From an uncultured Chloroflexia bacterium (GTDB lineage: Bacteria; Chloroflexota; Limnocylindria; Limnocylindrales; CSP1-4): a stretch of DNA of 64,000 nucleotides. This document shows, piece by piece, positions 17,530 through 40,722 of this stretch. Under the pieces are notes generated by a model. That model ran no database searches. It was not told the DNA's origin and saw only the letters and a program-made list of their open reading frames with translations. Position 1 is the stretch's first letter. Every line of letters begins with the position of its first letter. A program made the translations under genes and the position numbers. The DNA lies in NCBI GenBank assembly GCA_963776865.1, contig CAVZOG010000003.1, forward strand, positions 233,269 to 297,268, in the 5' to 3' direction.

Positions 17530-17535
17530 CAACCA

Positions 17536-18363: not shown

Positions 18364-18372
18364 GATGGCCGC

Positions 18373-18630
18373 ATGCCTTTCAACATCGGGCCGTTCGAGC
18401 TTCTGCTGGTGTTGATCCTGGCCCTGCTGATCCTCGGCCCGGGCAAGCTGCCGGAGGTCGGTAGCGCTCTCGGCCGCACGATCCGTGAGTTCCGCAAGGC
18501 CTCGACCGACGTTGAGGACTCGCTGCGCGTCGATGCGACGCCGACCAAGGCCGATGCGGCCACAGCCGCCCGCCCGGTGACTTCTGCGGCCGACACGGCC
18601 GACGCCACCGAGGACCGCGCAGCCTCCTGA
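18373..18630 (+). CDS. tatA: twin-arginine translocase subunit TatA/E
   Basis: MPFNIGPFELLLVLILALLILGPGKLPE... is the canonical TatA. Confidence 0.9.
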   Translation: MPFNIGPFELLLVLILALLILGPGKLPEVGSALGRTIREFRKASTDVEDSLRVDATPTKADAATAARPVTSAADTADATEDRAAS

Positions 18631-18681
18631 CTGACACTCTCGGCGTGGACAGGCCGTCCGCGCTGCCTGCCCGACCCACCG

Positions 18682-19435
18682 ATGAGCGCCGAGCCCGAGA
18701 CCCCGCTCGCTGTCGATCCGGTGATGACGTTGACCGAGCACCTGAGCGAGCTGCGGCTGCGCATCTTCATCGGACTGCTCGCGATCGGCATCGGAACTGC
18801 CGTTGGCTGGATTCTCGCGCCGGCCGCGATCAACCTGCTCAAGGCGCCGATCGCCGGTCCGCTCGTCTTCACCGCGCCGAGCGGCGCATTCTTCCTGCAG
18901 CTCAAGCTGGCGTTGATGATCGGCGTCGCGCTCGCGTCGCCGGTCGTGCTGTACGAGCTGTGGGCGTTCGTGTCGCCCGGTCTGACACCGCACGAACGCC
19001 GCGTGGCGCGACCCTGGGTGCCGATGGCGCTCGTGTTCCTGGTCCTCGGCATCGGCGTGGCGTACCTGATCCTGCCGGCGACCGTCGGATTCCTGCTCGG
19101 CTTCGCGATCCCCGGAGTCGTCGAGCCGCTGATCACGGTCGACGCCTACTTCGGTTTCGTGACCACGATGTTCATCGCCTTCGGCCTCGTGATGCAGTTT
19201 CCGATCGTGATCGTGCTGCTGAGCAAGGTCGGACTGGTCAACGCCGACCGGCTGCGCCGCGGCCGGCGTTACGTCATCGTGGCCATATTCGCGGTTGCCG
19301 TCGTGGTTACACCCGGCGGCGACCCGTTCAGTCCGGTGATCATTGGCAGTCGTCATGTACCCGCTGTACGAGTTCACGATCTGGCTGGTGAGCCGATCAG
19401 AGCGTCGCTCTGGCCGCTCGATTACGGCATCCTGA
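18682..19435 (+). CDS. tatC: twin-arginine translocase subunit TatC; frameshift ~19350-19360
   Basis: TatC 6-TM sequence. C-terminal tail ...VVMYPLYEFTIWLVSRSERR is recovered in the +1 frame. Confidence 0.85.
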
Positions 19436-19441
19436 CAGCTG

Positions 19442-20331
19442 ATGTCGACCACGCCTCCGCCACGACCCCACGTAGCGATCATCAGCGGCCTGTCGGGAGC
19501 CGGCAAGACGGCGGCCAGCAAGCTGCTCGAGGACCTCGGCTACCGCGTCGTCGACAACCTGCCGGCAGAGCTGCTGCGCGACCTGGCCAGCTCGTCGTGC
19601 GCGACCCGAGCCGCTATCGAGCGAGTGGCGCTCGTGCTCGACGCGCGTGCCGGTGATGCGCCGGTGGCCTTCCGCGAAGCGCTGTCGTCGCTCGAGAGCC
19701 GCGGCATCAGCCCGCAGGTGTTCTACCTCGAGGCGCGCGACGACGTGCTCATCCGCCGCTTCAGCGAGACGCGTCACCGCCACCCGCTCGACAGCGACGA
19801 CCAGGGCGTGGCGGCGTCCATCGCCCGCGAGCGAGAGCTGCTGGCCGAGATCCGCGCCCAGGCGGACGTGATCATCGACACCTCCGAGCTGTCCGGGCGG
19901 CGAGCTGCGCGAGCGCCTGTACGGCGCCATCAACACGCCGCCCACGGGCAGTGGGATTGCGCTGCAGCTGGTCAGCTTTGGCTTCAAGAACGGCATCCCG
20001 CTCGAGGCCGACGTCGTGTTCGACGTGCCGCTTCATGGAGAACCCGTTCTACATCGACCGACTCAGGCCGCTGAACGGCATGGATGCCGACGTCCGCGAG
20101 TTCGTCCTTGGGCAGCCGATCACCAGCCAGTTCCTGGACCAGGTCCACGACATGCTCGTCCTGGCGCTTCCCGGCTATGAGTCCGAGGGTCGCGGCCGCT
20201 TGACGGTCGCTTTCGGCTGCACCGGCGGGCAGCATCGCTCGATCGCCATCGCCGAGGAGGTCGCCGCGCGCTGGCGAGCCGAGAATCGCGGCGCGGTCAG
20301 CGTCTGGCATCGCGAGCTGGAACAGGCGTGA
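19442..20331 (+). CDS. rapZ: RNase adapter protein RapZ (YvcJ/YhbJ P-loop ATPase); two frameshifts (~19890, ~20030)
   Basis: Walker A IISGLSGAGKTAA. C-terminal ...FGCTGGQHRSIAIAEEVA in a third frame. Confidence 0.85.
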
Positions 20332-21732
20332 ACGGGACCGGTAACGGGAACGGCGACCGGCTACGGAGCCGCGAACGGAGGCGGCGATGCCTCGCGTGTC
20401 GATGCCCAGCTGCGCCGGAGCGAGCGCAACCGTGCCCTGCGCCTATGGCTGCGCCCGGGGATCGGGATCAAGCGCTGGCTGGTGGTCGCCTTCTTCGGCC
20501 AGCTTCTGATCGCGCTGGCCGTGGCGCTTCTGCTCCAGGCCACGTTCGGCAGTGCTCCTGCCGTGGATGCGCCTACCGTCGGTCACAGCGCCGACGCTGC
20601 AGCTCGAGCTGCTCGTCTTCATCCTGTTCACAGTCGGTCTGGCGATCTTCGCCTACGGAGCGTGGCGCCTCCTGCGCGCGCTCGTCGAGCCCTACCAGGT
20701 CCGCCAGGAGCCGCTGGGCGAGCTGCTCTACCAGCGTCGGTTGCGCGCGCGCGGCCCGCGCGTCGTGGCCATCGGCGGCGGCACCGGGCTGTCGGTCCTG
20801 CTGCGCGGCCTCAAGGAGCAGACCAGCAACATCACCGCGGTCGTCACCGTGGCCGACGATGGCGGATCGTCGGGCAAGCTGCGCGACGAGATGGGCATGC
20901 CGCCGATGGGCGACATCCGCAACTGCATCGCTGCCCTGGCCGACGCCGAGCCGGCGATGAACAGCCTGCTGCAATACCGATTTCCAGCCTCGGACGGTCC
21001 AGAATTCGAGCTTCGCCGGCCACGCCTTCGGCAATCTGCTGATCGCCGCGCTCGACCGAGCGTCACGGGCGACTTCGAGGAGGGCGTCCGCCAATCCAAC
21101 CGCGTTCTCGCCGTACGCGGCAGCGTCGTTCCCGTGGCCGGCCAGCCGATCACCCTGCACGCCGAGCTCGGCGATGGCAGCATCCTCGAGGGCCAGTCGC
21201 GCATCGCCAGGCGCGCGGCCAATTCGGAGGGTGTGGATCACGCCCGACGGCATCGCGCCCTCGGAGGAGGCACTCGACGCCATCGCCAACGCCGATCTCG
21301 TCGTGATCGGCCCGGGCAGCGTGTACACCAGCCTGCTGCCACCGCTGCTCGTGCCCGGCATGCGCGATGCGCTGCGCAGGACGGGCGCGCGCGCGCCTGT
21401 TCGTGTGCAACGTTGCCACGCAGGTCGGCGAGTCCGAGGGGTTCAGCGTGTCCGACCACCTTGCCGCTCTGTCGGCGCACGGTCTGGGCGACGTGATCGA
21501 CGGTGTGCTGGTCAACGACAACTTCAAGGCGCGCGAGCCGGCGAACTACCCGGCCGCGCCGGTCGTCGTCGACGTGTCGCTGAGCAGCGCCGACGGGCCG
21601 CCGATCTTCGCGCGCGACGTCGTCGACGATGACAACGCCCACCACCACGACCCACGCAAGCTGGCGAGCGCGATCTTCGCGCTGCACGACGAACGGGTGC
21701 TCAGCCGGCGCGAGCAGGTGGCGGTCAGCTGA
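20328..21732 (+). CDS. yvcK: gluconeogenesis factor YvcK/CuvA (UPF0052, CofD-like); at least five frameshifts
   Basis: VVAIGGGTGLS...VADDGGSSGKLR...MPPMGDIRNCIAAL, HAFGNLLIAAL, VWITPDG...DLVVIGPGSVYTSLLP and VATQVGESEGFSV segments are spread over three frames. Confidence 0.8.
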
Positions 21733-22567
21733 CAGAGGCGCCCAGCCGGCGAACACCGCTCGGAGCTGCGCAGCGCGATCTGGTCGCGGCAGTCCGCGCC
21801 GAGCTGGCCGCGATCGAGCCGGCGCGCCAGTGCTGCCGCATCGCCGAGCGCGCCGGGCTTGGGCGCGGCAGGGAAGGGCAGGGCTCGAACGCCGACCGTC
21901 GGCCGGCTCGCGGTGCGACTCGACGATGCCGCCGCTCCGGACGAAGTCGAGGCGTTCGACTGGCGCCCGGCGGCGGCCCACTGCCGGATCGCCTACCTGC
22001 GCGGCGCCGTGCTGGCCCATGGCTCGCTGAGCGTCGCCGCGGCCGGCTCGCATCTCGAGCTCGTCGTGCCGGTCGACGAGCTCGAATCGCACGCTGAGCT
22101 GGCCGTGGCCGTCGGTCATCCGGCCGGCCTGCGCATCCGTCGCGGCCGCGGCGTGCTGACGTGGAAGAACTCCGAGTCGATCGTCGGCCTGCTGCGCCGC
22201 CTTGGGGCGTCGGCATCCACGCTGGAGCTCGAGTCGCGGCTCGTTGGTCGCGCCGTGCACGGCCATCTCAACCGGGTCGTCAACGCCGAGCACGCAAACC
22301 TGCGCCGTGCGGTCGCCGCGGCCCATCGACAGCTGAACGATATCGACGCGCTCGACGGACGTGGCGAGCTGGCGCGGCTACCCAAGCCGCGTCCGCCGCG
22401 TGGCCGAGGCGCGGCGCCGCGCTCCCGAAGCGACGCTCGCCGAGCTTGCCGCTGACCTCGATCTGTCGCGCAGCCAGGTGCAGCGCGCATTCCAGACGAT
22501 CGAGAGCGCGGCGCTCCATGGCGGCGAGGATGACGCCGGCCCGGACAGCACGGCTCGCCCGACATGA
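21733..22567 (+). CDS. whiA: sporulation/cell-division regulator WhiA; multiple frameshifts, start codon not identifiable
   Basis: VRAELAAIEPARQCCRIAE (WhiA N-terminal CC motif), LAGLID-like middle segments, and C-terminal HTH ...APEATLAELAADLDLSRSQVQRAF. Confidence 0.7.
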
Positions 22568-22573
22568 GGAGCT

Positions 22574-23363
22574 GATGGCCATCTCGCGACCGGTGATCGT
22601 CGCCGGAAATTGGAAGATGAACAGCACGCCCGACGCGCCGCTTCGCTGGCCGCCGCGATCGCGCAGGCCACGGAGGTCAGCGGCGTCACGCGCGTGCTCT
22701 GCCCGCCTTTCGTGTGCCTGGCAACGGTGCGCGACGCGCTGGCCGGCACGGACGTGGAGATCGGCGCCCAGAACGTCCATTGGGAGGCGGCCGGCGCCTA
22801 CACCGGCGAGATCTCGGCCCAGATGCTGGTCGGGCTGGCGACCTGGGCGATCGTCGGCCACTCGGAGCGGCGCCGCGATCAGGCCGAGGACGACGTGCAG
22901 ATCGGGCGCAAGCTCGTGCGCTGCATCGAGAGTCGGCATTCGGCCCATCCTGTGTGTCGGCGAGCAGCTCGCCGAACGCGAGTCGGGACGCGCCGAGTCC
23001 ACCGTGCGAGGCCAGCTCGAGGCGACTATCGCGGAGGTCAAGCGCCTCGGCTCCGAGCTGCCGGCCGACCTCGTCATCGCCTATGAGCCTGTCTGGGCGA
23101 TCGGCACCGGCCTGACGGCGCGTGGCAGCGACGCGGCCGCGATGGCCCAGCACATCCGGATGACGCTGACGACTGCCGGAGCAGCGGCAGACGACGTGCC
23201 GATCCTGTACGGCGGCAGCGTCACATCGGCCGCTATCGACGAGTTCCTGGCCGAGCCCGACATTGACGGCGCTCTCGTCGGCGGGGCGAGCCTGAAGGTC
23301 GACGAGATGGCCGGCATCGTCGCTCGCGCCGGTCTGACCGCGGCCGCCCGCCAAGCGGCGTGA
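22574..23363 (+). CDS. tpiA: triosephosphate isomerase; two frameshifts (~22640, ~22930)
   Basis: RPVIVAGNWKMN, AIVGHSERR, ILCVGE, IAYEPVWAIGTG and ILYGGSV motifs across three frames. GAGGAG RBS. Confidence 0.85.
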
Positions 23364-24898
23364 GTCGCCCGCGCCCGATCGTCCTCGTCGTTCTCGATGG
23401 CTTCGGCGTCGGGACTCGACCGCTCGACGACGCCATAGCCAACGCCAGGATGCCCGCCTGGCGCGCGCTGCTCAACGAGTGGCCCCACTCGCTTCTCGAG
23501 GCTTCAGGCGCAGCCGTCGGGTTGCCGCCAGGTCAGATGGGCAACAGCGAGGTCGGCCACCTCAACCTCGGCGCCGGGCGGCCGGTCGTGCAGGACCTGC
23601 CGCGCATCGACGCCGCGATCGCCGACGGATCGTTTGCCGTCAATCCGGCCCTGCAACAAGGCGGTCGCACGGGCAGCAGCGGGACATCGACTCCACCTCG
23701 TCGGCCTGCTCGGACCCGGTGGCGTCCACTCGGTCGACCGGCACGCCGTCGAGATCGCGCGCATGGCCCGGCTGGCCGGGGCCGCTGACGTCGTGGTCCA
23801 CGGACTGCTCGACGGCCGCGACACGCCGCCGCGCTCGGCGGACGTCTTCGTTCCTGATTTCGAGACCCGATTGGACGAAGCGCATCCGGGTGCACGCATC
23901 GCCACCATCGGCGGGCGCTACTACGGCATGGACCGCGATCGGCGCTGGGAGCGTGTCCAGCGCGCGTACGACGCGATCGTGCTCGGCCGTGGCCTTCAGC
24001 GCGTCGAGTGCCGCGGCAGCCGTCGCCGACGGCTACGCCCGCGGCGAGAACGACGAGTTCGTCCAGCCGACCGTGATCGACGGCGTCGACGGAACGGTCC
24101 GCGACGGCGACGTGGTGATCCACTTCAACTTCCGCGCCGATCGCGCGCGCCAGCTGACCCACGCCCTGGTCGACGGCGACGAGTTCGACGGCCAGGCATT
24201 CGACCGCGGCAAGCGGCCCCGAGATCTGCACGTCGTGACGATGGCCGATTACGAGGCCGGTTTGCCCGTTGCGGTCGCATTTCCGCCGCTGACGGTGACC
24301 AGCCTGGCCGAGATCTTCGCCGGCCTGGGCTGGCGCCAATTCCACGTGGCCGAGACAGAGAAGTACGCCCACGTCACCTATTTCTTCAACGGCGGCATCG
24401 AACCGCCCTTCCCGCACGAGGAGCGGCTCCTGGTGTCCGAGCCCGAGTGTGGCGACCTACGACCTCCAGCCAGAGATGAGCGCGGATGGAGTGACAGGCG
24501 GGCTGATCGACGCCATCACCAGCGACCGCTACGACTTCATCGTCGCCAACTTCGCCAATCCCGACATGGTCGGCCACAGCGGTATGTGGGACGCGGCGGT
24601 TTCGGCTGTCGAGTTCGTGGACGGATGCATCGCCCGGATCACCGCCGCGATGCCCGCCGGACGGTCTGCTGTGCATCACCGCCGACCACGGCAATGCCGA
24701 CGAGATGCGCGACGTGAACGGCAACCCGATGACCGCGCATTCGCTCAATCCGGTGCCGGTCGTGCTGATCGGCGACACCGTCCGCGGCCGAGTGTTGCGC
24801 GATGGCGTTCTGGCCGACGTCGGCGCCGACGCTGCTCGAGCTCGCGGGCCTGCCGCCGGCGGAGGGCATGACCGGCGACGAGCCTGCTCATCGGCTGA
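23360..24898 (+). CDS. gpmI: 2,3-bisphosphoglycerate-independent phosphoglycerate mutase (iPGM); about five frameshifts
   Basis: [10 protein letters not shown]...[17 protein letters not shown]; [13 protein letters not shown]; [18 protein letters not shown]; [13 protein letters not shown]; [12 protein letters not shown]; C-terminus ...TGTSLLIG in the shifted frame. Confidence 0.85.
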
Positions 24899-24926
24899 AC
24901 CTGACTTCCCTGCTATCCTCCCGGCC

Positions 24927-25250
24927 GTGCAGAACATCCTTCTCGTCGGCCAGGTCCTGGTCAGCATCGCGTTGATCGCGTCGATCCTTCTCCAGTCACG
25001 CGGCGCCGGTCTCGGCGCGACATTCGGTGGCGACTCATCGGTCTTCCGCAGCCGTCGTGGAATCGAGAAGCGGCTGTTCCAGTTCACGGTCGTCCTGACC
25101 GTCCTGTTCGTCATTTTCTCGATCGCGGCCTTCAAGCTCAGCCGAGCCCCTCTAGGCTCCGCGGCCGCGCTCAGCGGCCGTGCTAGACTTGGCCTTCGCC
25201 TGAAGGGTCCAAAAGGCCGTGAAAGGCTGCGCGCCGAGGTGGCGGAATAG
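24927..25250 (+). CDS. secG: preprotein translocase subunit SecG (3' end uncertain; ORF runs 18 nt into tRNA-Leu)
   Basis: GTG start. VQNILLVGQVLVSIALIASILLQSRGAGLGATFGG is the canonical SecG. Confidence 0.75.
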   Translation: MQNILLVGQVLVSIALIASILLQSRGAGLGATFGGDSSVFRSRRGIEKRLFQFTVVLTVLFVIFSIAAFKLSRAPLGSAAALSGRARLGLRLKGPKGRERLRAEVAE

Positions 25251-25614: not shown

Positions 25615-25790
25615 TCACACGCGGTCGGCGATCGCCTCGTGCGGCACCACGTCCAGGACGGAGTCGAGGTGCGCCGCTGGCGCTTCTTGGAGGCCCGGCA
25701 GAACGTGGCTGTACGTGTCGAGCGTGATCGAGACGCTGGCGTGGCCAAGCCGTTCAGCAACCTTCAGGATGGTCGCGCTGTCGCCATCAG
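25615..25790 (-). pseudogene. tyrosine recombinase (phage-type integrase) C-terminal fragment (~55 aa)
   Basis: ...ATILKVAERLGHASVSITLDTYSHVLPGLQEAPAAHLDSVLDV matches the integrase C-terminal box (LGH-S-TLDTYSHV). Upstream in-frame sequence is not integrase-like. Lies 74 nt from tRNA-Val. Confidence 0.65.
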
Positions 25791-26331: not shown

Positions 26332-26514
26332 ATGCGCCAATACTTGTTCGGCCTGACGCCCGAGCAGTACGCCTCGATGCTCGAAGCACAGGAAACCGCT
26401 GCGCGATATGCAGAACCGATACCCCTGGCAAGCGACGTGCTTGCGGTGCCCGACGCGACCGATCCCGAACTGGCCGCAGCCTGGCCGAGCCGGCGGTCCA
26501 GTTCGATTGGGTAG
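26332..26514 (+). pseudogene. family-C fragment (copy 1): carries the EQYA and DPELAAAW motifs, diverges and ends early
   Basis: ...LTPEQYASML...VPDATDPELAAAW. The DNA is homologous to 27137-27230 for about 90 nt, then degenerates. Confidence 0.4.
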
Positions 26515-26533: not shown

Positions 26534-26757
26534 CTAGACCTTCGAGCGCAGAACCAGTGAGGGTCCGGTCGGACAGCCCGAACAAGGAGCCCGATGCTGA
26601 CCCGACCTTGTACTGGATCTTGACGGTGTGCTGCCCGGCCGGAACGCTGGCGACGAACTGCATGCTGTGCGCTCCTCCCTGAAGGTTGTCTCGGTCAAAG
26701 ACGATCTCGAGCGGGGGGATTACGTGGCCGTCGACCACGGCGCGGACCATGCAAGTC
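26534..26757 (-). pseudogene. family-B fragment (copy 1): C-terminal ~70 aa only, with internal 1-nt indel
   Basis: CMVRAVVDGHV...HTVKIQYKVGSASG...DRTLT(+1)LRSKV*, compared with the intact paralogs at 28233 and 37063. Upstream frame is closed by TGA. Confidence 0.5.
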
Positions 26758-27136
26758 CCGACGCACCGTCGAGGATGCCCATCCGCAGGGTGACGTGCGC
26801 TATTGCTCGCTGTACCGCAAAAGCCTCAACCCGGTTACGGCGGATACGCTGCAAAATCTCATGGCCGAGGTCCCGGCGACAGATGGGGTTCCGCTCACCG
26901 TGCGACTCACCGATACAACCATCGAGTTCGCGAAGGTCGACAACGCCAACTTTGGATATCACCTGCAGTGCCAGCTCAGCGAAGTTTCCTTCTACGGGGA
27001 GGCCTTGGGCATCTTCGGCGCTGTAGTGACCTACAAGATCACGGCGGCGAACGGCTGACGCGCCATCAGGCGGCCACTGTGTGAAAGCCGGTCGATAAGC
27101 CGCCGGTAAGTCGCGCCGGGTTACCTGGCACGAGAG

Positions 27137-27391
27137 GTGCCTACCGTGCCCGGCGTGACCGATCCCGAACTGGCCCAAGCTTGGGCTGAGCTGCACGCCT
27201 CGACGCCGCCCGGTTGGTGGGTCGGTAGCCCCGGTCCGCGACATGGCGGCACCTGGACGATGTATGCGTTCGATCAGACAGAGAAGGCGCACATCGGCCG
27301 GCGAAGACGCGAATGGACCACCGAAGCCCCGTCAGAGCTCGAGTGCGTTTACGAGATGGCGCGCTGTCTGCGGAAGATCAGTGAGGGCTAA
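27137..27391 (+). CDS. family-C small protein (84 aa), intact copy: VTDPELAQAW...PPGWWVG...TWTMYAFDQTEK...SELECVYEMARCL
   Basis: GTG start after GAGAGG RBS. The same motifs recur at 26362-26484, 30320-30447 and 37599-37700 with synonymous substitutions (ctg/cta, gcc/gct). Confidence 0.6.
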   Translation: MPTVPGVTDPELAQAWAELHASTPPGWWVGSPGPRHGGTWTMYAFDQTEKAHIGRRRREWTTEAPSELECVYEMARCLRKISEG

Positions 27392-27415
27392 GGATTCGAC
27401 TGCGGGAGTATCTTC

Positions 27416-28126
27416 GTGTCGTCGGAACAGACAGCCACGAGGAGGGATCCGATGTCGATCGACAGCACCGCGACACGTTCGCGACGCTCGCTCCTGTTCG
27501 CGGGGCTCGGAGCGCTGGGCGCAGCCGTCGGCGCCACGCTCGCGCGCCCATCGCCAGTGCACGCCGATGACCCCGACGACGTCACGTTGGGCGCCGCGAA
27601 CACCGCTCCCACGGCGACAGAGATCCGGAACACCGGCGATAGCCTGACCGCGATCCGAGGTGTCGGGACCACCGGCCCGGGTGTGACCGGGAGGAGCAGG
27701 GACCACCACGGGACCCAGGGCTTCAGCGACGACTTCACGGGAGTCTGGGGGCAGAGCACGTTCGACTACGGAGTGATCGGTTTCGCGCCGTCCGGGGCAA
27801 GGGCCGGCTCCCTCGGCTATTCGGCAGGGAACAAGACCGGCGTGTACGGCCTCAGCAAGGGCAACGGCGAGGTCCCGCGCACGACCCCCGACAAGACCGG
27901 CGTGTACGGACGTGCCGTCGGAGGCACGGCCGCGGTCGGTGTCCGCGGGGAGTCGGGCACCGGTCGGGGCGGGTACTTCATCGGGAACGTCGCCCAGCTG
28001 CGGCTCAAGCCATCAGACTCGCAATCGCATCCCCCGGCCGGACTGGCGGGCGACCTCTTCCTGGACAGCTCTAGACGCCTCTGGCTGTGCAAGGGCGGCT
28101 CCACGTGGGCGCGCCTGGACACGTAG
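27416..28126 (+). CDS. family-A Tat-exported Gly-rich protein (236 aa) with conserved C-terminal motif AQLRL-P...AGDLFLD-S-RRLWLCKGGSTW
   Basis: Tat signal SRRSLLFAGLGALGAAVGA. G-x-Y-G repeats. 25 nt downstream of the family-C gene on the same strand. Confidence 0.7.
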   Translation: MSSEQTATRRDPMSIDSTATRSRRSLLFAGLGALGAAVGATLARPSPVHADDPDDVTLGAANTAPTATEIRNTGDSLTAIRGVGTTGPGVTGRSRDHHGTQGFSDDFTGVWGQSTFDYGVIGFAPSGARAGSLGYSAGNKTGVYGLSKGNGEVPRTTPDKTGVYGRAVGGTAAVGVRGESGTGRGGYFIGNVAQLRLKPSDSQSHPPAGLAGDLFLDSSRRLWLCKGGSTWARLDT

Positions 28127-28232
28127 CGAGCGCTCCACGGTCGATCCGATCCCGAATAGGCCAGCCGGTACGCCGGGCTACTGTGTCGCGCTGAAAAGTT
28201 GCGCCGGGTGACCGTTCGCCGTGAGTGACCTC

Positions 28233-28751
28233 CTAGACCTTCGAGCGAAGCACGCTCAACGTCATGTCGTCCATCCGGAACGTGTAGCCGGGCGCACTTG
28301 CTGCGTACTGAATTTTGACGACATGTGATCCGGCCCCAAACGGGCCTGCAACCCAGTGCGTGCTACGTGTCTCATAGGTCTTACTGAGGGCCGGTCTGAA
28401 AGAGCTAATCCCCGGGCCGACGTTCACACCGTCGACCAGGGCGCGAACCGGGCAGACATGCTCCGACACTGCCCCGGACGCGACGCACGCCGCATTGGCC
28501 GAGAACTGGATCATGAACAGGGCGGTTGTGTTGCTCGGGACGTTGACCGACAAGGACATGTCCGGCACGTCGACATAGCTGAATGCCGTGGTGTTGACGG
28601 ACGTGTCGCGAGTGACCGCCCTCAACGCCGTTATCCCGCGGCCGCTCTTGGTGACCGTGGCCCCGAGTACGACGCCGCCCGTGAGCAGCAGCGCGCCGAG
28701 CAACGCGATGAGAACGATGAACGAGCGTGGATGCCTGAGCCGTGCGGACAT
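28233..28751 (-). CDS. family-B signal-anchored protein (~172 aa) ending ...VVKIQY...MTLSVLRSKV
   Basis: N-terminal TM/signal FIVLIALLGALLLTGGVVLGA. GGAGGG RBS. Paralogous to 37063..37590 (C-x-VRA-VVDG, VKIQY, LRSKV). Confidence 0.7.
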   Translation of the reverse strand: MSARLRHPRSFIVLIALLGALLLTGGVVLGATVTKSGRGITALRAVTRDTSVNTTAFSYVDVPDMSLSVNVPSNTTALFMIQFSANAACVASGAVSEHVCPVRALVDGVNVGPGISSFRPALSKTYETRSTHWVAGPFGAGSHVVKIQYAASAPGYTFRMDDMTLSVLRSKV

Positions 28752-28934
28752 GAGCCCTCCCGCGCCGCCTCGCAGCATTTCTGCGCTCGTCGCGCCGCGT
28801 GGGCGCAATCATGCGCCGGCTGTCGATAGACAAAAGTCCGGCTAGGCAGCAGGTGGATCATGACTGGCAGGACGTGCGACGCCGGTCAGCATCGTTCCCG
28901 CCGATCCGTTCGTGCGCCCCGAACGGAGGGCATC

Positions 28935-29715
28935 ATGTCCACGGATAGTGGGGCCGGGGATCTCGGGTCAGAGAGCTTCGGGCCGTCGCTCGAGTGTCTT
29001 CACCGGCGTCCTGGTTGCGACCCTGCTCGTCGTCGTCTCCGTGGTCGGTCAGGCCGCTGCGCACGACTCGGGCACGACCAGTCACCTGTGGGAGCACTTC
29101 AAGGGCTTAAAGGTCGCCGGGACGATCAATGCCGACACCAATCCCGTCGACTGGACGAAGCTCAAGGGCGTGCCCGCCGGGCTGGCCGACGGCGTCGACG
29201 ACGGCGTCACGGTGGCCGGCTTCGGCCTGAACAAGGTCCTCAGTGCGTTCTGGGTCGACCCCGAGGAGGTTCAGAAGCGCGTCACCACGGCATGCCCTGC
29301 GGGGCAGGCGATCAAGTCGATCAGGCAGGACGGCACGGCGGCGTGCGCGCTGGTCTCGCAGGGGGTCTCAAAAACGAGCGCCAGCACCGGGATCATCTGC
29401 AACGACTGGTGCGAAGAGGGGAGGGTTACCCTCAGTCCCGGCACATGGGCGGTAAGCGCCAAGATCGTTGTCTACAACTGGGGCCAGTTGCAGGAGGACG
29501 AGATCGAAGTCGACTGCCAGCTTCACGCCTCCGGTGCAATCGACAGGGCGTCGTTCTGGCTGGAAGACGACAGTCAGGCGACGCTGCACCTTCAGATTCT
29601 GGCGACCATAGCGCAAGGCGGCGACCTGGGCGCCTACCTCGACTGCAGGGACAATGACGTCGGGGACCTGGGTGGATCCGACCTTTCGATCATCGCCATC
29701 CGAACTGGCGGCTGA
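28935..29715 (+). CDS. Cys-rich secreted/anchored hypothetical protein (probable frameshift near the N-terminus)
   Basis: GGAGGG RBS before ATG 28935. The signal/TM segment SVFTGVLVATLLVVVSVVGQAAAHD sits in the adjacent frame (ORF 28912..29715). Eight Cys in the mature part. Confidence 0.55.
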
Positions 29716-30275: not shown

Positions 30276-30607
30276 CAGCGAGCTGACAAGGGGACGGTGC
30301 CTAGATTCGCGACAGTGGCGGATCCCGATCTAGCTGAAGCCTGGAACGAGCCACGTCAACGTAGCCGGTAGCCGTGGTGCTGACGGGCGTGCGCTCGCGC
30401 TTCGGCAACTGGCCCCTGATATCGTCCCAGCAGTACGCGCCCGACGAACGGGCATCATGCCGGTCTATGGCTCCGGAGGGGTAACGCTCGATGCCACAGG
30501 CTCCGATGCCAGGAATCCGGAGCACCGTCGATCAGAACTACCTCAATGGCACGGTCCTGGCGCCACTCAAGATCAAGAACAATCGCTGAGGTACGACCGC
30601 GCTGAGC

Positions 30608-34585: not shown

Positions 34586-35588
34586 ATGAGCACCCAGCCA
34601 GTCCAGAGCTTCTACGCGCAGATCGGCGCCAACCGGCGCAACTCGGTCGTGCTTGTCGTGATCCTGACCGCCCTGTTGGGCGTGTTCGGCTTTGTCGTCG
34701 GCTTTGCCCTGAGCGGGGCGTGGCAGGGTGGCCTGCTGGCGGTGTTCATCGCGGTCGTGATTGCGATGCTGCTGTCGGCCATCTCGTACTACAGCGGTGA
34801 CAGCATCGTCCTCGCCGCGTCGAGCGCGCGCGAGGTCAGACTGATCAGACCGCGCCGCAGCTGATGAACGTCGTGCGCGAGATGGCGATCGCGGCCAACA
34901 TCCCGATGCCGCGCGTCCACCTGATCGAGGACACGCGCGCCGAACGCCTTTGCAACCGGCCGCGATCCGCAGCACGCCAGCGTGGCGATCACCACCGGCC
35001 TGCTCCAGAAGCTGGACCGCGAGGAGCTGCAGGGCGTGATCGGCCACGAGCTCGCGCACGTGCGCAACCTCGACATCCGCTTCACGCTGCTCGTGGCGAC
35101 GCTGGTCGGCTCGATCGCGCTGCTGGCCGACTTCTTCCTGCGCTTCACGTTCTGGAGCAGCGTGACCGGCGGCAGCCGATCGCGGAGCAGTCGTGACAGC
35201 GGCGGCGGCGGACTGCAGATCATCATGCTCGTGGTCGGGATCGTGCTGGCGATCATCGCCCCGATCATTGCCCGCATGGTCCAGCTTGCGGTCAGCCGCC
35301 AGCGCGAGTACCTGGCCGATGCCTCGAGCGTCGAGCTGACCCGTAACCCGTACGGCCTCCAGCGGGCGCTGGCCAAGATCAGCTCCGACAGCGAGGTTCT
35401 CGAGGTCGCCAACCGCGCCACCCAGCACCTGTACATCGTTAACCCGATCAAGAAGTTCGAGAAGCGCGCCGCCGGGCTTGACGTCGACCCACCCACCGAT
35501 CATCGATCGAATCAACCGACTGCGGTCGTTGACCGGCGAGGCGCCGGTGGACCCGCAGGCGATGGGCGCGCTGGCCGGCCTCGACTGA
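34586..35588 (+). CDS. htpX: zinc metalloprotease HtpX (peptidase M48); two frameshifts (~34850, ~35000)
   Basis: HELAHVRNLD (HExxH). Four TM segments. C-terminal ...NPIKKFEKRAAGL then THPPIIDRINRLRSL in the shifted frame. The lemA-htpX pairing is common. Confidence 0.8.
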
Positions 35589-35669
35589 CCGGTGAGCTCG
35601 ATGGAAGGGCTTCCGGTGTTGTGGTTCAATAAGACCGGTCGTTGCCGCGACCGGTAAAGGTCTGGACGC

Positions 35670-35745
35670 GCCGAGATAGCTCAGTTGGTAGAGCACGCGA
35701 CTGAAAATCGCGGTGTCGCCAGTTCAATTCTGGCTCTCGGCACCA
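35670..35745 (+). tRNA. tRNA-Phe (GAA)
   Basis: Acceptor GCCGAGA/TCTCGGC. Anticodon loop CTGAAAA. T-loop GGTTCAATTCC. CCA encoded. Confidence 0.9.
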
Positions 35746-35777
35746 CCACATCTGGCCGGTCGGGCAGATGTGCTCCG

Positions 35778-35853
35778 AGCGGGAGTGGCTCAGCTGGTAG
35801 AGCGTCACCTTGCCAAGGTGAAGGTCGCGGGTTCGAACCCCGTCTCCCGCTCC
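35778..35853 (+). tRNA. tRNA-Gly (GCC)
   Basis: Acceptor GCGGGAG/CTCCCGC. Anticodon stem TCACC/GGTGA with loop TTGCCAA. T-loop GGTTCGAACCC. Confidence 0.9.
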
Positions 35854-35899
35854 ATTCTTCCAACCGAACCAGCCGGCATGGCCGGCCCATGAGCACCGC

Positions 35900-35973
35900 T
35901 GGCCCTTCGTCTAGTGGTAGGACAGCGGACTTTGGATCCGTGAACCGAGGTTCGAATCCTCGAGGGCCAGCCA
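35900..35973 (+). tRNA. tRNA-Gln (TTG)
   Basis: Acceptor TGGCCCT/AGGGCCA. Anticodon loop CTTTGGA. T-loop GGTTCGAATCC. Confidence 0.8.
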
Positions 35974-35986
35974 ACACAAGCTTCCG

Positions 35987-36062
35987 GGCGACGTACCCAA
36001 GCGGTTAAGGGGGAGGTCTGCAAAACCTCTATTCACCGGTTCGAATCCGGTCGTCGCCTCCA
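35987..36062 (+). tRNA. tRNA-Cys (GCA)
   Basis: Acceptor GGCGACG/CGTCGCC. Anticodon stem GAGGT/ACCTC with loop CTGCAAA. T-loop GGTTCGAATCC. Confidence 0.85.
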
Positions 36063-36074
36063 GAAATCACACTC

Positions 36075-36106
36075 AGAACCGGCCTGAAAGGGCCGGTTCT
36101 TTGTAT
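36075..36106 (+). terminator. rho-independent terminator AGAACCGGCC-TGAAAG-GGCCGGTTCT + TTGTAT
   Basis: 10-bp stem plus T-rich tail after the tRNA cluster. Near-identical copy at 41679-41712. Confidence 0.7.
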
Positions 36107-36184: not shown

Positions 36185-36880
36185 CTAGCCCAAAGCCAAC
36201 CAAGCGATGGCTGTGGCGCTGCTACGCGACGAGCTGATCTTGATCGTGAACTGGTGCGTCGTTCCATTGACGGTCTGGAACCACAGGCTGCGACCGCTGA
36301 GGTTCACCTTCGGTGTGAGCAGCACGAATGTGTTGGCGTTGATCACATTTGACGTGACGACGACGGACGTCTTGCCGGCACCAATGGTCGCCACTCCGCT
36401 CGCACTGAATTCCAGCCTGCCGTTGGCACGCAGGGCAATGGGGCCAAGGGCCGTGACTGCGACGCCCTCGCTCGAGGAGCCGTAAAGACCGTATCCGGCG
36501 TTCTCGGCGATCCCTGCGACGCCGATACCGCTGCCGTCGACATAACCCAACACGCCGTTGCGCCCCGCCTGGCCAAATCCCAACACCGCCGAGCCGTATG
36601 TGTCCTTGGCGTGCCCGGCGATCGCAGCGCTATCCGGAAGAGCATTAACGCCCTTGTCGGTCACCGCGAAGCCGTAGATGCCGGGACTCTGATTCTGGGT
36701 CACGACGAGGGCAGTCGGCGAGGTGCCGGTCTTCGTCTGGCCGACTGTCACCGCTTCGCCATTGGCGGCCGAGGATGGAGTTGGGCGACCCAACGCATTC
36801 GCTGCCAGTGCGGCAGCTCCGCCGACCGCGGCGGCGAGGATTCCTCGACGCGAACGTTGCGTCATCTCGGGGCTAGACAT
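36185..36880 (-). CDS. Tat-exported Gly-rich protein, divergent member of family A (231 aa)
   Basis: Tat motif QRSRRGILAAAVGGAAALAANA. G-x-(Y/L)-G repeats. C-terminal ...GRSLWFQTVNGTTHQF relates to the RRLWLCKGG motif. Confidence 0.65.
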   Translation of the reverse strand: MSSPEMTQRSRRGILAAAVGGAAALAANALGRPTPSSAANGEAVTVGQTKTGTSPTALVVTQNQSPGIYGFAVTDKGVNALPDSAAIAGHAKDTYGSAVLGFGQAGRNGVLGYVDGSGIGVAGIAENAGYGLYGSSSEGVAVTALGPIALRANGRLEFSASGVATIGAGKTSVVVTSNVINANTFVLLTPKVNLSGRSLWFQTVNGTTHQFTIKISSSRSSATAIAWLALG

Positions 36881-37062
36881 CGTTCCCTCCTAGCCCCCAA
36901 TTCGGCCGACTGTATCAGTGGCCTTTCTGGGCGTGACCGATCTAGAAGTGACCGTCGCCTGGGTCCACAGGCTTCTCATTGACGAACGCCCGATGCTCCC
37001 CGTATCTGAGGGGATGGTCACGGGTACGAGGGGACCTGTATGTCACACGCGAGAGGTGAGAG

Positions 37063-37590
37063 ATGGCGAACTTCAAGCTAGGCCGCTTACATATGACGCA
37101 TAGCGTCACGCGGCGCGCGCTTGCCCTGCTCGTGATCGGGTTATGCCTGGCCCTGACCGCTGAGACCGTTGTTCTTGCCGCCGCCGTGAAGCGCAACGGC
37201 GGAGCAGTGACGGCCGTTCGCACCGCAGTCAACCCCGGCTACGACAACTGGACGCAGTCGGCAACGCCCACTGACGTGGTCGGCATGTCGGTCACGGTTA
37301 AGGTTCCCGCCGGGGAACGCGCGCTCCTGGTGGCCACGTTCTCGGCGACGAGCGTATGCGATGGCGGCTGTTTCGTTCGCGCCGTGGTGGGAAGCACGAC
37401 ACTGACGCCCGACCTAGCGATCGTCGATTCCCCGGATCGCCATGTGCCGATGAGTCGGCAATGGGTGTCAGCGGTGCTCAATCCCGGCGAGTACACCGTG
37501 AAGATTCAGTACTGGGTGGGTGACAGCGACGGCAACATCTTCATCCTCAAGGACCGCATTCTTACGGTGCTGCGTTCCAAGGTGGTCTGA
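37063..37590 (+). CDS. family-B signal-anchored protein (175 aa), paralog of 28233..28751
   Basis: GAGGTGAGAG RBS. TM ALALLVIGLCLALTA. C-FVRAVVG, YTVKIQYWVG and RILTVLRSKVV motifs. Confidence 0.7.
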   Translation: MANFKLGRLHMTHSVTRRALALLVIGLCLALTAETVVLAAAVKRNGGAVTAVRTAVNPGYDNWTQSATPTDVVGMSVTVKVPAGERALLVATFSATSVCDGGCFVRAVVGSTTLTPDLAIVDSPDRHVPMSRQWVSAVLNPGEYTVKIQYWVGDSDGNIFILKDRILTVLRSKVV

Positions 37591-37591
37591 G

Positions 37592-37818
37592 CACCTGGGA
37601 GCAGTACGCCTACGACACGACCGAGAAGCAGGTCGGCAAGCGCAGCCGTGAGCGGACGGCTGAGGCTTCATCAGAGCTCGAGTGCGTCCACGAGATGGCG
37701 CAGTATTTCGGGAGATCAATGAGGGCCGGGCTCCAGGGCAAGCCGGAAAAGCTTTCGCTGACCGGCCTACGCCTTGACGACGATCTTCACCCAGCTTGTT
37801 CCGCCCTTGCATAACCAA
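37592..37818 (+). pseudogene. family-C fragment (copy 3): TWEQYAYDTTEK...SSELECVHEMAQY, lacks the DPELA N-terminal part
   Basis: Homologous to residues 40-80 of 27137..27391. Begins inside the stop of the preceding gene, has no own start, and its 3' part overlaps the family-A gene on the opposite strand. Confidence 0.45.
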
Positions 37819-38460
37819 AGGCGCTTGGACTTGTCGAGGTAGATGTCGCCGGCCTCGCCCGACGCCGGATGTGTGGTCGTCGTGGCGGGCTCGAGCCGGA
37901 TCTGAGCGGCCTTGCCCTTGAAGCGACCGCCACGGCCGTTGTCAGACTGGCCATAGACACCCGAGCCCGTGCCACGGGCAACGCCTGACGTGCCATTGCC
38001 AGCGGCCAGGCCCTCGCCGAAGACAGCCGGCCCCGACCCGTTCGTGATCCCGTACACAGCGGCGAAGCCGTTGCTTGCATGGAGATTCTTCACCCTTGAC
38101 CGCAGGCCCGGTGTTGGCGAACTTCAGGCCGTGCACGCTGATGCCTTCGTCAGAGACGGCGAGGCCCTGCAAGCCTTGGGGGCCCTGGACGATGGCTCCG
38201 ATGTCGTTGTCCGATATCGCGACCAGGCCCATACCATTCCCCGTGTTGCGGGCGAGCAGCGTCTGGCCGGAGCTAGTGGACGAGATGGACGTGCCCGAGG
38301 TCCCAGCATCGTTTGGCGTGCCGAGTATCACCGGATTGCCTGCGGCGGCCGCAGTCGGCAGTGGACGCAGGACCGCGCTGGCGACCAACGCCGCCAGTCC
38401 CGCGAAACCTCCGGTCAGTAGCGCCCTGCGCGATCTAAGCTCCAGTGCTGAATCAGACAT
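37767..38460 (-). CDS. family-A Tat-exported Gly-rich protein (copy 3), frameshift ~38095-38110
   Basis: N-terminal ORF has Tat motif LRSRRALLTGGFAGLAALVASA. C-terminal ORF ends ...AAQIRLEPATTTTHPASGEAGDIYLDKSKRLWLCKGGTSWVKI. Confidence 0.65.
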
Positions 38461-38749
38461 GTGACCCTCCGGCGCGGCACCGCCCCTCGACGGTGTTGGG
38501 CGGGCTCGCCTGAGGCGGGTCGACGCACAAAGCGTTGGCCGACTCTACACGCAGCCGACTTGGCGATCGGCGAGACAGCGGTCGACTGCTGCTCGAGATG
38601 GCGCGTTGTCAACGGATCATCGCCGAAGGCGGCGTCCCGAAGTAGTGCTTGTCGCTCCGGGTCACGGCCCTCGGTTGCGACCATGGTCACGACGATTTTC
38701 ACGCTTGACCGAAGGATTCCACCAGTTGTTGGACGACTACTGTCATGAG

Positions 38750-39304
38750 ATGCGGAGCCGCGAGCAAGCAGAGAGCCCTCAACGCGTTGTGGCGTTCGCG
38801 AAGCCGCTCGCCGCTGACGACGCCGCATTTCGCGCTTGGTACGACACCTCGCTGCCGCGCGTGTATTCGTACCTGTTCACGCGCTGCGGCCGCAATACGG
38901 ATCTCGCCGAGGAGCTGACGCAGGAAACGTTTGTGGAGGCGGTCAGATCACGCCCGACCGCTACTGCGGAGCAATCGCTCAATTGGCTGATCGGAATTGC
39001 GCGCCACCGGCTGCTCGATCACTTCCGCAGCGTCGAGCGGCGCGAGCGGCGCTTCGTGCGGCTCGTTGCCAGTCGTCGGCCGCAGAGCGTCTGGATGGAC
39101 GACCCGGACCCGCTGGGTCACATCCAGGACGCACTCGGGCGGCTACCAGCGGCTCAACGGGCGGCCGTGGTGCTGTGCTATGTGGACGGGCTGGCCGTCC
39201 GTGATGCCGCCGCGCTGTTGCATCGCACGGACTCGTCCGTTGAATCACTTCTTGGCCGCGCACGCGCCTCGCTACGCGATTCACTTTCGGAGGAGCCGCG
39301 ATGA
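38750..39304 (+). CDS. ECF-type RNA polymerase sigma factor (sigma-70 family, group 4)
   Basis: Region 2 (FRAWYDTSLPRVYSYLFTRCG...AEELTQETF) and region 4 HTH (AAVVLCYVDGLAVRDAAALLHRTDSSVESLL). ATGA overlap with the next gene. Confidence 0.85.
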   Translation: MRSREQAESPQRVVAFAKPLAADDAAFRAWYDTSLPRVYSYLFTRCGRNTDLAEELTQETFVEAVRSRPTATAEQSLNWLIGIARHRLLDHFRSVERRERRFVRLVASRRPQSVWMDDPDPLGHIQDALGRLPAAQRAAVVLCYVDGLAVRDAAALLHRTDSSVESLLGRARASLRDSLSEEPR

Positions 39305-40722
39305 ATACGCGCGAACAGTGGAGCGATCAGGAGCTGATCAGTGCGCTGCGCGGCATCGACCAAGACCTGCAGCCGCGGCCCGAGTTCGCGGACCGTCTGT
39401 TCCAGGTCGTCCTCCGCGAGAAAGCCGCGCGCCGGCGCCCCACGTTCCTGTTCATGGCCGCCGCGGCGCTGCTGGTGGCCTCCATCGCCGGTGCGGCTGT
39501 GTTCGGCAGCGGTCCGTTTCGCGACCCGAACGTCCGCACCGTCATCATCGCACCGACCGCGTCGGCCCCTACGTCGACACCTACTGCGAGCGCCATGGCA
39601 ACTGCCGGCGTGTCATGGACCGGCGCAGTACGCGCCGACGCAGACACGATGCCGCTGTTAACCATGGACGGTCCCGCTGTATGTTCCGCCGAGAACCCAA
39701 TCAGTTGGGAGGATGAGCTCGAGTCCCCGACGGGATTTGTCGACATCATCGAGACACGTTGGTCACCAGGCCCGGGTACCAGTCTCCCGGTCCTCATGCT
39801 CTCCTCGAAGCCGCCGCCTGCTTTGGAGCTGGACCCAAGCCTCGCGCTGATCGAGTACGGGCTGGTGTTCGATGAGAATCTTGACGGCACACCGGACTAT
39901 GAATTAGGTATCAACAACTCCCCGGACGGCGCCTCATATCGCGTCTGGGTAACCGATCTGGCCCGTGGTGGAACGGTGGAACAAATCGGCCCCCCGTACG
40001 GCGCGCCGGTTGAGTTCAGGCATCCGGACGAGCAGGACGCGGGCGAGTCTCCATCCATGTCGTTCGTGTTGCTAACCGGCGTCCCCACACCCCTCGCGCT
40101 CGGTCGCGAGTACCGCTACTACGCTTGGTCTTCGTACTCCGAGAACGGTTCTGTCGTGGCATGGGATTACGCGCCCAACTTCGGCTGGCTGCAACTGCCC
40201 ACCTGCCAAGCTTTGCCTCGGGCTTCCGAGGAGACCGTGCCGCCCGGCTGGACGCTCCATGACCGGCCACTACCCGGAATGGGCAGCAACAAGGCCGGCG
40301 AATACGGATGGACTGGCGCACTGGGTTCCAGAAGTTGGATGCACAGCGTGATAACCGATCCCACTTATGGTGATGGCTACCGACAGACCCAGCTCACCTT
40401 TGCCATCCAGGACGATTGCTTCCCTCGGGCAGCAGGTGCAGAGCCGACGTCGTTGAGAGTAGCCGGGCTCGACGGCCTATACCTCGTGCCCTACCACGAT
40501 CCGAGCGTGCTGTTGTTCTCCAAAGGCGGCAAGACGACCGGAGCGTATGCCCTGCCTATCGGCGACCGAACGCTGTGCGCCTACGTCACATGGGACGCGG
40601 CGACGACACCGGAAGAACTGAGCGCAGCGCACGCGGTGGTGGGTTCCATCCGCGGCCAGCCCTTCGGGGGGAACGGTATTCGCATCAACTTCACGCTGCC
40701 TGCCGGTTGGGACACCGGATGA
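39301..40722 (+). CDS. anti-sigma factor: cytoplasmic N-terminal domain, single TM, ~400-aa extracytoplasmic domain
   Basis: Translationally coupled to the sigma gene. TM TFLFMAAAALLVASIAGAAVF at residues 48-68. C-terminus ...INFTLPAGWDTG. Confidence 0.75.
   Translation: MNTREQWSDQELISALRGIDQDLQPRPEFADRLFQVVLREKAARRRPTFLFMAAAALLVASIAGAAVFGSGPFRDPNVRTVIIAPTASAPTSTPTASAMATAGVSWTGAVRADADTMPLLTMDGPAVCSAENPISWEDELESPTGFVDIIETRWSPGPGTSLPVLMLSSKPPPALELDPSLALIEYGLVFDENLDGTPDYELGINNSPDGASYRVWVTDLARGGTVEQIGPPYGAPVEFRHPDEQDAGESPSMSFVLLTGVPTPLALGREYRYYAWSSYSENGSVVAWDYAPNFGWLQLPTCQALPRASEETVPPGWTLHDRPLPGMGSNKAGEYGWTGALGSRSWMHSVITDPTYGDGYRQTQLTFAIQDDCFPRAAGAEPTSLRVAGLDGLYLVPYHDPSVLLFSKGGKTTGAYALPIGDRTLCAYVTWDAATTPEELSAAHAVVGSIRGQPFGGNGIRINFTLPAGWDTG

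Follow-up and report, generated by a model that had tools for sequence, protein, structure and literature searches.

Positions 36185-38460 of the 64-kb stretch of contig CAVZOG010000003.1 analysed here (the window) hold members of three protein families, which we call A, B and C and which also occur, in a different order, at 26.3-28.9 kb. We refer to these regions as locus 2 (genes A2, B2 and A3 and remnants of C, among them C2 and C3) and locus 1 (genes C1b, A1 and B1), respectively. A preliminary description had taken them for two copies of one A/B/C cassette whose different gene orders imply repeated recombination among the copies. Part of this interpretation stands, since the same three families are indeed present in different orders and the region is rearranged, but the evidence supports neither a fixed cassette nor recombination of one locus with the other. 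Locus 2 shows ordinary island dynamics, in which paralogues that have diverged and remnants of pseudogenes accompany tRNA genes. We assign a probability of about 0.6 to the reading that locus 2 forms the tRNA-proximal portion of a variable island specific to its lineage, behind tRNA-Cys in a soil Chloroflexia genome, and that its gene order is the debris of gene turnover and did not arise by recent exchange between the loci.

Both loci lie in lineage-specific variable islands, which are hot spots of gene turnover beside tRNA genes. Island 1 begins directly 3' of tRNA-Val (25541) and island 2 directly 3' of tRNA-Cys (36062), and the synteny of the window with two of the loci fetched for comparison (designated by L numbers), L004 and L009, stops at about 36062-36099. 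The backbone is collinear with that of L009, a distant relative with the order tRNA-Leu/Leu/Val, lemA-htpX within 80 nucleotides (nt), tRNA-Phe/Gly/Gln/Cys, a single A gene and tRNA-Leu(taa). The interval between tRNA-Val and LemA measures 80 nt in L009 versus 8.4 kb in the window, and the interval between tRNA-Cys and tRNA-Leu(taa) 2.7 kb versus 18.7 kb. In L004, whose backbone is 74% identical at the nucleotide level, OTCase follows straight after tRNA-Cys and locus 2 is missing; OTCase is absent from the window. In L063, tRNA-Cys is adjoined by an open reading frame (ORF) of 415 amino acids (aa) that encodes a putative tyrosine integrase, judged by its N-terminal sequence and without a profile search, and a C remnant lies at the end of this island that is far from tRNA-Cys. 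The putative integrase gave no tblastn match to the integrase remnant in the window (Table 1).

The rearrangement of the region is borne out by L017, which is 95% identical to the window at the nucleotide level over lemA-htpX-tRNA and has other island content beyond. Its array contains two unrelated genes for secreted proteins, each with a C 3' remnant behind it, a HIT gene, a full C gene, a divergent A2-like/B pair and a pair with a sigma factor of the extracytoplasmic function (ECF) type. The B gene of L017 is nearer to B1 than to B2, i.e. the A2-like gene is paired there with a B1-like and not with a B2-like partner. Between positions 14480 and 14900 of L017, only tRNA-Phe and tRNA-Gly are present, the homology to the window ends inside tRNA-Gln, and tRNA-Cys is missing; the island boundary thus varies between close relatives.

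The similarity between the two loci is significant in tblastn searches within the window, and the hidden Markov models (HMMs) of the families concur. The C-terminal parts of A1 and A3 are 55% identical over 60 aa (E = 4e-22), A2 and A1 share 32% over 139 aa (E = 5e-9), B1 and B2 33% over 166 aa (E = 1e-14), and C1b and the C fragment of locus 2 63% over 38 aa (E = 3e-11), so that amino-acid identity between the loci ranges from 32 to 63%. At the DNA level, the alignment of the loci is limited to two short stretches, 140 nt of C (72% identity) and 178 nt of the A C-terminus (68%), the former including 31 nt at 93.5% between C1b and C2. Overall, the copies are about 68-76% identical in nucleotides, in short stretches only; the longest exact run common to both loci is 17 nt, and no mosaic tracts of high identity were found between them. 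Judged by their sequences, the locus 2 genes are true but old paralogues of the locus 1 genes.

These values bear directly on the idea that one cassette exists in two copies that still recombine with each other inside the genome, which would produce different orders and a truncated C. The same three families occur at both loci, the C copies keep a similar 3' stretch (the 31 nt mentioned above, and 55 nt in which C1b is 91% identical to a remnant of C in L017), and the A2-like/B1-like pair of L017 implies that partners have been reassorted in the lineage. Nevertheless, we regard this explanation as very unlikely, given the low identity of the copies (only 32-33% at the amino-acid level for A and B), the shortness of the exact runs and the lack of mosaic tracts. 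Moreover, the conserved C 3' stretch varies mainly at third codon positions, which indicates conservation at the protein level and not an attC-like site or recent conversion. As far as the alignments tell, recent exchange between loci 1 and 2 is not supported, whereas reassortment across the lineage is.

On the + strand, locus 2 reads C 5' remnant, B2, C 3' remnant, A3 (reversed), C 3' remnant and ECF sigma gene (Table 1). The preliminary description had placed A2, B2, a C fragment and A3 here, and the ORF list and the sequence agree with the presence and position of all four. A2, introduced then as a divergent A-like protein of the twin-arginine translocation (Tat) pathway, does have the leader and the repeat region, but the conserved C-terminal domain of family A is absent: A2 is akin to A in its N-terminal ~130 aa only, and its C-terminal domain differs. 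Its nearest relatives are the A2-like genes of L017 and L018 (52% aa identity), which are also divergent to a B gene.

The C fragment is a real 5'-truncated remnant that starts at the B2 stop. The onset of C2 lies within 1-2 nt of the TGA of B2, codons ~1-38 of the family are gone, and nothing resembling the missing N-terminal half was found upstream of C2 in any frame. The end at 37818 proposed before is a read-through of a 1-nt deletion located between 37708 and 37709; behind this deletion, C homology resumes in the other frame ('FREINEGRAPG...'), and the C-terminal helix runs to a TGA at 37775-37777. Because C2 truly ends at 37777 and the stop codon of A3 is at 37767-37769, the overlap of C2 with the 3' end of A3 is 11 nt, not 52. 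As for the smaller remnants, the C 5' remnant between A2 and B2 matches the 5' end of C1b in 26 of 34 nt, a score reached in none of 200 simulated 64-kb windows (maximum 24). C3 was detected with the family HMM (38583-38642, + strand, E = 6e-4) and also as a DNA repeat; its translated stretch at 38583-38645 ends with EMARCQRIIAEGGVPK and a stop codon. C2 and C3 are dead remnants. A2 and B2 would be functional envelope genes, and A3 probably as well. A scan of locus 2 for sigma-70 promoters and terminators yielded no promoter and one terminator-like site, which is under the shuffle expectation.

Table 1 Features of loci 1 and 2 and their borders (positions refer to the window)
Feature	Position	Strand	Description
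Tyrosine integrase remnant	25615-25790	-	C-terminal remnant ('ERLGHASVSITLDTYSHV'), 74 nt after tRNA-Val, left edge of island 1
Cx	26424-26514	+	C 5' remnant within ORF 26332-26514; tblastn E = 5e-5
Bx	26535-26765	-	3' fragment of B (family positions 97-174) with a 1-nt indel close to the end
C1b	27137-27391	+	Complete, unlike all other C copies of the window; stops 57 nt before A1 starts
A1	27449-28126	+	Intact; likely true start ATG 27449 behind GGAGG
B1	28233-28808	-	Intact; convergent with A1
tRNA-Phe/Gly/Gln/Cys cluster	35670-36062	+	Found with ARAGORN; 3' end is the left boundary of island 2
A2	36185-36880	-	Twin-arginine leader (SRRGIL) and glycine-rich repeats; from the ORF list
C 5' remnant	36930-36963	+	'GVTDLEVTVAW'; in the A2-B2 intergenic region; from the repeat search
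B2	37063-37590	+	Intact; predicted N-terminal transmembrane (TM) helix and ~130-aa beta jelly-roll domain with two conserved Cys
C2	37592-37777	+	5'-truncated C remnant, family positions ~39-90, without start codon
A3	37767-38460	-	Full A-family gene: SRRALL leader, repeats, conserved HP..G.AGD..LD...RLWLCKGG..W C-terminal domain
C3	38530-38645 (approx.)	+	Decayed C 3' remnant ('...RSRLGDRRDSGRLLLEMARCQRIIAEGGVPK' and stop) between the A3 start and the ECF sigma gene
ECF sigma factor	38606-39304	+	Pfam Sigma70_r2/r4_2/ECF matches; true start probably further downstream
473-aa ORF	pair with ECF sigma gene: 38606-40722	+	No recognised family; overlaps the ECF sigma gene

The ECF sigma factor is a possible regulator of the neighbouring envelope genes, given its adjacency to them, and the 473-aa ORF may by its position encode an anti-sigma factor. 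ECF sigma genes with an overlapping downstream gene recur beside A2-like, B and C genes in L017 (3010-4133 and 8576-10366) and in L018.

For the origin of this arrangement, we propose that C-carrying DNA would have arrived repeatedly at the tRNA sites, and that gene replacement, inversion and deletion would have followed. This would have left the present five C remnants and the single intact C of locus 1, in mosaics that retain envelope genes, A and B among them, while most C copies decay. The C family is widespread (253 clusters at 50% identity; ~80 aa). Full and partial C copies are present in L017, L018 and L020, where about 8 of them lie within 15 kb, all on one strand; contigs of Joint Genome Institute (JGI) metagenomes carry several copies each, some with real internal frameshifts. 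C 3' remnants typically begin 0-100 nt past the stop codon of an unrelated gene.

Several observations weigh against the reading of locus 2 as a part of such an island. Within the window, no integrase for island 2 was found in the ORF list, with Pfam or with tblastn, and searches with each tRNA plus 30 nt (blastn-short) gave no significant second copy of a tRNA 3' end, i.e. no att repeat. The GC content of the loci (62-65%) is barely under the 66-72% of the backbone at 14-25 kb. The C 5' remnant at 36930-36963 is a 34-nt match in DNA that was not detected at the protein level. The breakpoints of the C remnants are scattered (family positions 34-73 for 3' pieces and 20-42 for 5' pieces), which fits decay without proving serial integration. 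Finally, the Nanopore origin of the window, on which the assessment of the frameshifts described below draws, is itself inferred.

The position of the C remnants also allows a more specific proposal, namely that C copies serve as portable homology anchors or insertion targets for swapping single envelope-protein genes, in the manner of cassette exchange but without attC. Four observations hint at this: B2 lies between a C 5' and a C 3' remnant on the + strand, the A3 block common to the window and L007 (37789-38550) is bounded by two C remnants, the C 3' remnants of other contigs begin 0-100 nt behind the stops of unrelated genes, and the A1 block shared with L004 starts exactly at the stop codon of C1b. 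The latter block, A1 with 57 nt upstream (27389-28131 versus L004 9938-10680), is 90% identical in nucleotides versus 74% for the backbone, and its third-position identity is 83% versus 57-70% in backbone genes, which suggests, at the level of sequence comparison, a recent exchange of a single gene. Even so, we consider a role of C copies as anchors highly doubtful. If it were true, it would be a new route for the diversification of surface proteins, for which the present evidence gives hints only.

The A3 ortholog in L007, a related metagenome-assembled genome (MAG), stands alone in a core-like context near dnaB (37789-38550 versus L007 9193-10143). The 5' leader and upstream part of the two genes are 84% and the 3' domain 77% identical, and the central repeats have been replaced (535 nt in L007, 345 nt in the window).

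To characterize the three families, we searched A, B, C and their neighbours against Pfam, NCBIfam, PHROGs and PADLOC, and apart from the Pfam matches of the ECF sigma factor no match rose above noise. Family A has 28 word-indexed relatives, mostly from soil metagenomes and Chloroflexi and some from Actinomycetota such as Nocardioides. Its members combine a twin-arginine leader with GxGVxGxS-like repeats, which vary in number, and with a C-terminal module that is invariant. This ~50-aa module, GRGG.F.G..AQ.RL.PS...HP..G.AGDLF.D...RLW.CKGG..W, defines the family and is present in A1, A3 and the homologues. The Tat motif is visible in A1, A2, A3 and most A homologues, and no Tat model of NCBIfam or Pfam scored above its cut-off; going by the motif, A is probably a Tat-exported protein.

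Family B is rare, with 14 relatives, and a metagenome scan with B returned none. The AlphaFold2 (AF2) model of the B monomer is a jelly roll with a predicted local distance difference test (pLDDT) value of 86. In a Foldseek search of the PDB, it matched the PLTL lectin (9ib6; E = 9e-5, template-modelling (TM) score on target length 0.66) and also 2wq4, 6tid, the BC2L-C N-domain, BclA, Pgp3 and C1q, with E values from 5e-5 to 1e-3 and TM-scores of 0.6-0.67 on target length overall. PDB profile searches with A and B found nothing, and B has no sequence similarity to the solved lectins. The model thus presents B as a predicted single-pass membrane protein with an exposed jelly-roll domain of the TNF/C1q-like type, and on the same structural grounds it is probably a trimeric ligand- or glycan-binding surface protein.

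For C, the AF2 model (pLDDT 87.6) is a small alpha-beta(4)-alpha domain. Against the PDB, nothing significant was found for this fold, the only resemblances being to proteins like double-stranded-RNA-binding domains and like T7 Gp1.2 at TM-scores of 0.5-0.6; in BFVD, the matches were uncharacterised phage proteins, the best being a Caudovirales protein (E = 5e-4, TM-score 0.74). A profile search of C against PDB sequences hit designed Kelch repeats over 23 aa only, which we regarded as spurious. In an IMG/VR viral contig, C stands beside a gene that by eye resembles a primase-polymerase, in L019 beside Bro-N and NYN genes, and elsewhere beside a DNA methylase-like gene (by eye) and HIT and SnoaL-like genes. 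The predicted fold and the neighbours of C suggest a cytoplasmic alpha/beta protein that typically occurs in integrative-element and phage-like contexts. We dropped a role of C as Tat chaperone of A because C also adjoins genes for cytoplasmic proteins (HIT, NYN, methylase). In a JGI metagenome contig (L046, 1006-3264, - strand), a 752-aa ORF begins with a C domain (family positions 25-87), either by fusion or by loss of a stop codon.

The three families could also form a functional module, with an exported fibre (A), a membrane partner (B) and a cytoplasmic helper or regulator (C), in which case locus 2 would be a working variant that lacks C. C1b precedes A1 on the same strand at a distance of 57 nt, A and C are adjacent, in either order, in L004, L005 and L012 as in the window, and the divergent A2-like/B pair is found again in L017 and L018 beside ECF sigma genes. 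We nevertheless judge a module to be unlikely, as the combinations vary from contig to contig, which also argues against the fixed A/B/C cassette of the preliminary description. B neighbours an A2-like gene in two of the fetched contigs (L017 and L018), lies among C copies without A in L020 and occurs without A or C in L001-L003; it joins A2-like or C genes only in these closest relatives of the window (L017, L018 and L020), and none of the A loci retrieved from reference genomes contains it. C was lacking in the fetched flanks of 8 of 12 A loci or present at a distance only, and B was found at none of them. Moreover, C is far commoner than A or B and adjoins unrelated genes: among 52 pattern-matched metagenome loci, about 43 contain C and none a credible match to A or B. 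Relative order and orientation differ in every case. In L037, a weak match to part of B (E = 8e-4, ~30 aa) was left out of account.

The frameshift in A3 noted in the preliminary description is real in the sense that the frame is disrupted compared with an intact ortholog, but it should not be taken for biology. A3 is broken into two ORFs, 37942-38460 and 37767-38093 on the - strand, and alignment with the ortholog in L007, which is in another contig and context, is intact and is 83% identical over the C-terminal 104 aa, traced the shift to one extra base at 38089/38090 (GAAG in the window versus GAG in L007). When this base is removed, the protein reads ...TGPAVKGENLHASNGFAAVYG... and is colinear with the L007 ortholog. 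The assembly is rich in such indels. At 17500-25200 and 34600-35640, the housekeeping genes rapZ-like, yvcK-like, tpiA, gpmI and htpX are broken by single-base frameshifts. Compared with the intact proteins of L048, a relative on a JGI metagenome contig, gpmI runs through frames 2>3>1>2>3>1 and rapZ-like through 2>3>1, yvcK-like and htpX are also shifted, and htpX changes frame three times; the Pfam domains of the tpiA, gpmI and htpX ORFs are partial only, and gpmI at its end continues in frame into secG. This amounts to at least 10 frameshifts in ~7.5 kb, so that about one is expected by error alone in A3 (0.69 kb). Since these housekeeping genes carry such shifts too and cannot all be dead, errors of the assembly are the most likely source of the frameshifts in A3 and C2, which are not to be read as biology. 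The 5' truncation of C2, in which ~115 nt are lost, is beyond a single-base error.

All frame changes relative to the intact reference proteins are +1, and this uniform direction suggests a systematic insertion bias of assembly or polishing. The closest relatives are MAGs of the Microflora Danica catalogue, which was assembled from Nanopore reads alone with Flye and one round of Medaka (PMC12313526). The window is most likely part of a Nanopore-only MAG as well, going by its protein matches on an NCBI/ENA contig.

With so many single-base errors and with family copies that are repeats able to mislead an assembler, the B2/C2 junction and the odd gene order could themselves be artefacts, arising from a chimeric join or collapsed repeats. 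This is extremely improbable. The copies (at most 76% identical in nucleotides) are too diverged for a long-read assembler to collapse or mis-join, truncated C copies abut unrelated stop codons in other assemblies too (L017 12934/12944 and 13611/13618; L020), and C pseudogenes are also present in JGI contigs. We therefore retain turnover debris in a variable island as the explanation for the order of locus 2.

Locus 1 is patchy as well: besides the intact C1b, A1 and B1, it contains remnants of an integrase and of the 5' part of C, a 3' fragment of B and an unrelated ORF of 87 aa. The integrase remnant (~58 aa) gave 42 tblastn matches in phage records, the 8 listed all being annotated as integrases (best E = 4e-7), and no Pfam match for so short a piece. 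Cx includes a 61-nt repeat that is 82% identical to 27124-27184. Within A1, an exact 19-nt direct repeat occurs at 27831-27849 and 27891-27909, 60 nt apart ('KTGVYG' units), which shows that the glycine-rich region is made of recently duplicated 20-codon units. Beyond B1, a fourth recurrent family is represented at 28912-29715 (+ strand) by a 267-aa secreted or membrane protein without a Pfam match; it is 66-82% identical to the products of genes beside B and C copies in L017, L018 and L020, and in L020 the gene of this family and B are in swapped order relative to the window. A further candidate C 5' remnant at 30312-30345 (+ strand, 'TVADPDLAEAW') is identical to C1b in 23 of 34 nt and is borderline, as this score was reached in 16 of 200 simulated windows.

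To summarize, the tRNA-Val and tRNA-Cys sites flanking htpX are hot spots of gene turnover in this lineage, and full and broken copies of C mark variable islands in soil Chloroflexia and relatives. Three uncharacterised families, for which Pfam, NCBIfam, PHROG and PADLOC have no model, could be defined, among them one with a predicted membrane-anchored TNF/C1q-like domain (B). The frameshifts in the window call for caution, as they are unreadable as biology in an assembly so rich in indels.

Parts of this region resemble known systems. A1, A2 and A3 begin like Tat substrates, with S-R-R-x-h-L, then a hydrophobic stretch and a cleavage region rich in Ala; they differ from them in that no curated Tat-signal model scored and no cofactor-binding domain is recognisable in A, whose export is predicted. 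The predicted jelly roll of B is like that of TNF/C1q-like proteins such as the Burkholderia BC2L-C N-domain, Photorhabdus PLTL, the C-terminal domain of Bacillus BclA and Chlamydia Pgp3, but, unlike these lectins, B has an N-terminal TM anchor and two B-specific conserved cysteines and shares no sequence similarity with them.

Integron cassette arrays are comparable in that variable genes are split by a recurring short element, mostly in one orientation, at a hot spot of turnover. They differ in that the recurring element here is coding, varies at third codon positions and has scattered breakpoints. No attC-like structure was found in the C 3' segments (0 pairs with RNAalifold in 16 segments), and no integrase-like ORF, of the IntI type or otherwise, is present near locus 2. 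An integron-like reading was rejected, the C 3' segments having no conserved structure.

A further parallel to the turnover proposed here is with the tRNA-adjacent islands of tyrosine-integrase elements, which grow by tandem accretion and decay. Differences exist here as well: island 2 has neither an integrase nor att repeats in the window, and the compositional shift is slight. As in these islands, both loci begin directly behind tRNA genes, relatives have other content or none at the corresponding sites, the window retains an integrase remnant at tRNA-Val and the relative L063 a putative integrase at tRNA-Cys, and accessory and surface genes are accompanied by pseudogene debris. In contrast to these islands, the repeated landmark is not a tRNA fragment but a small protein-coding gene, C.

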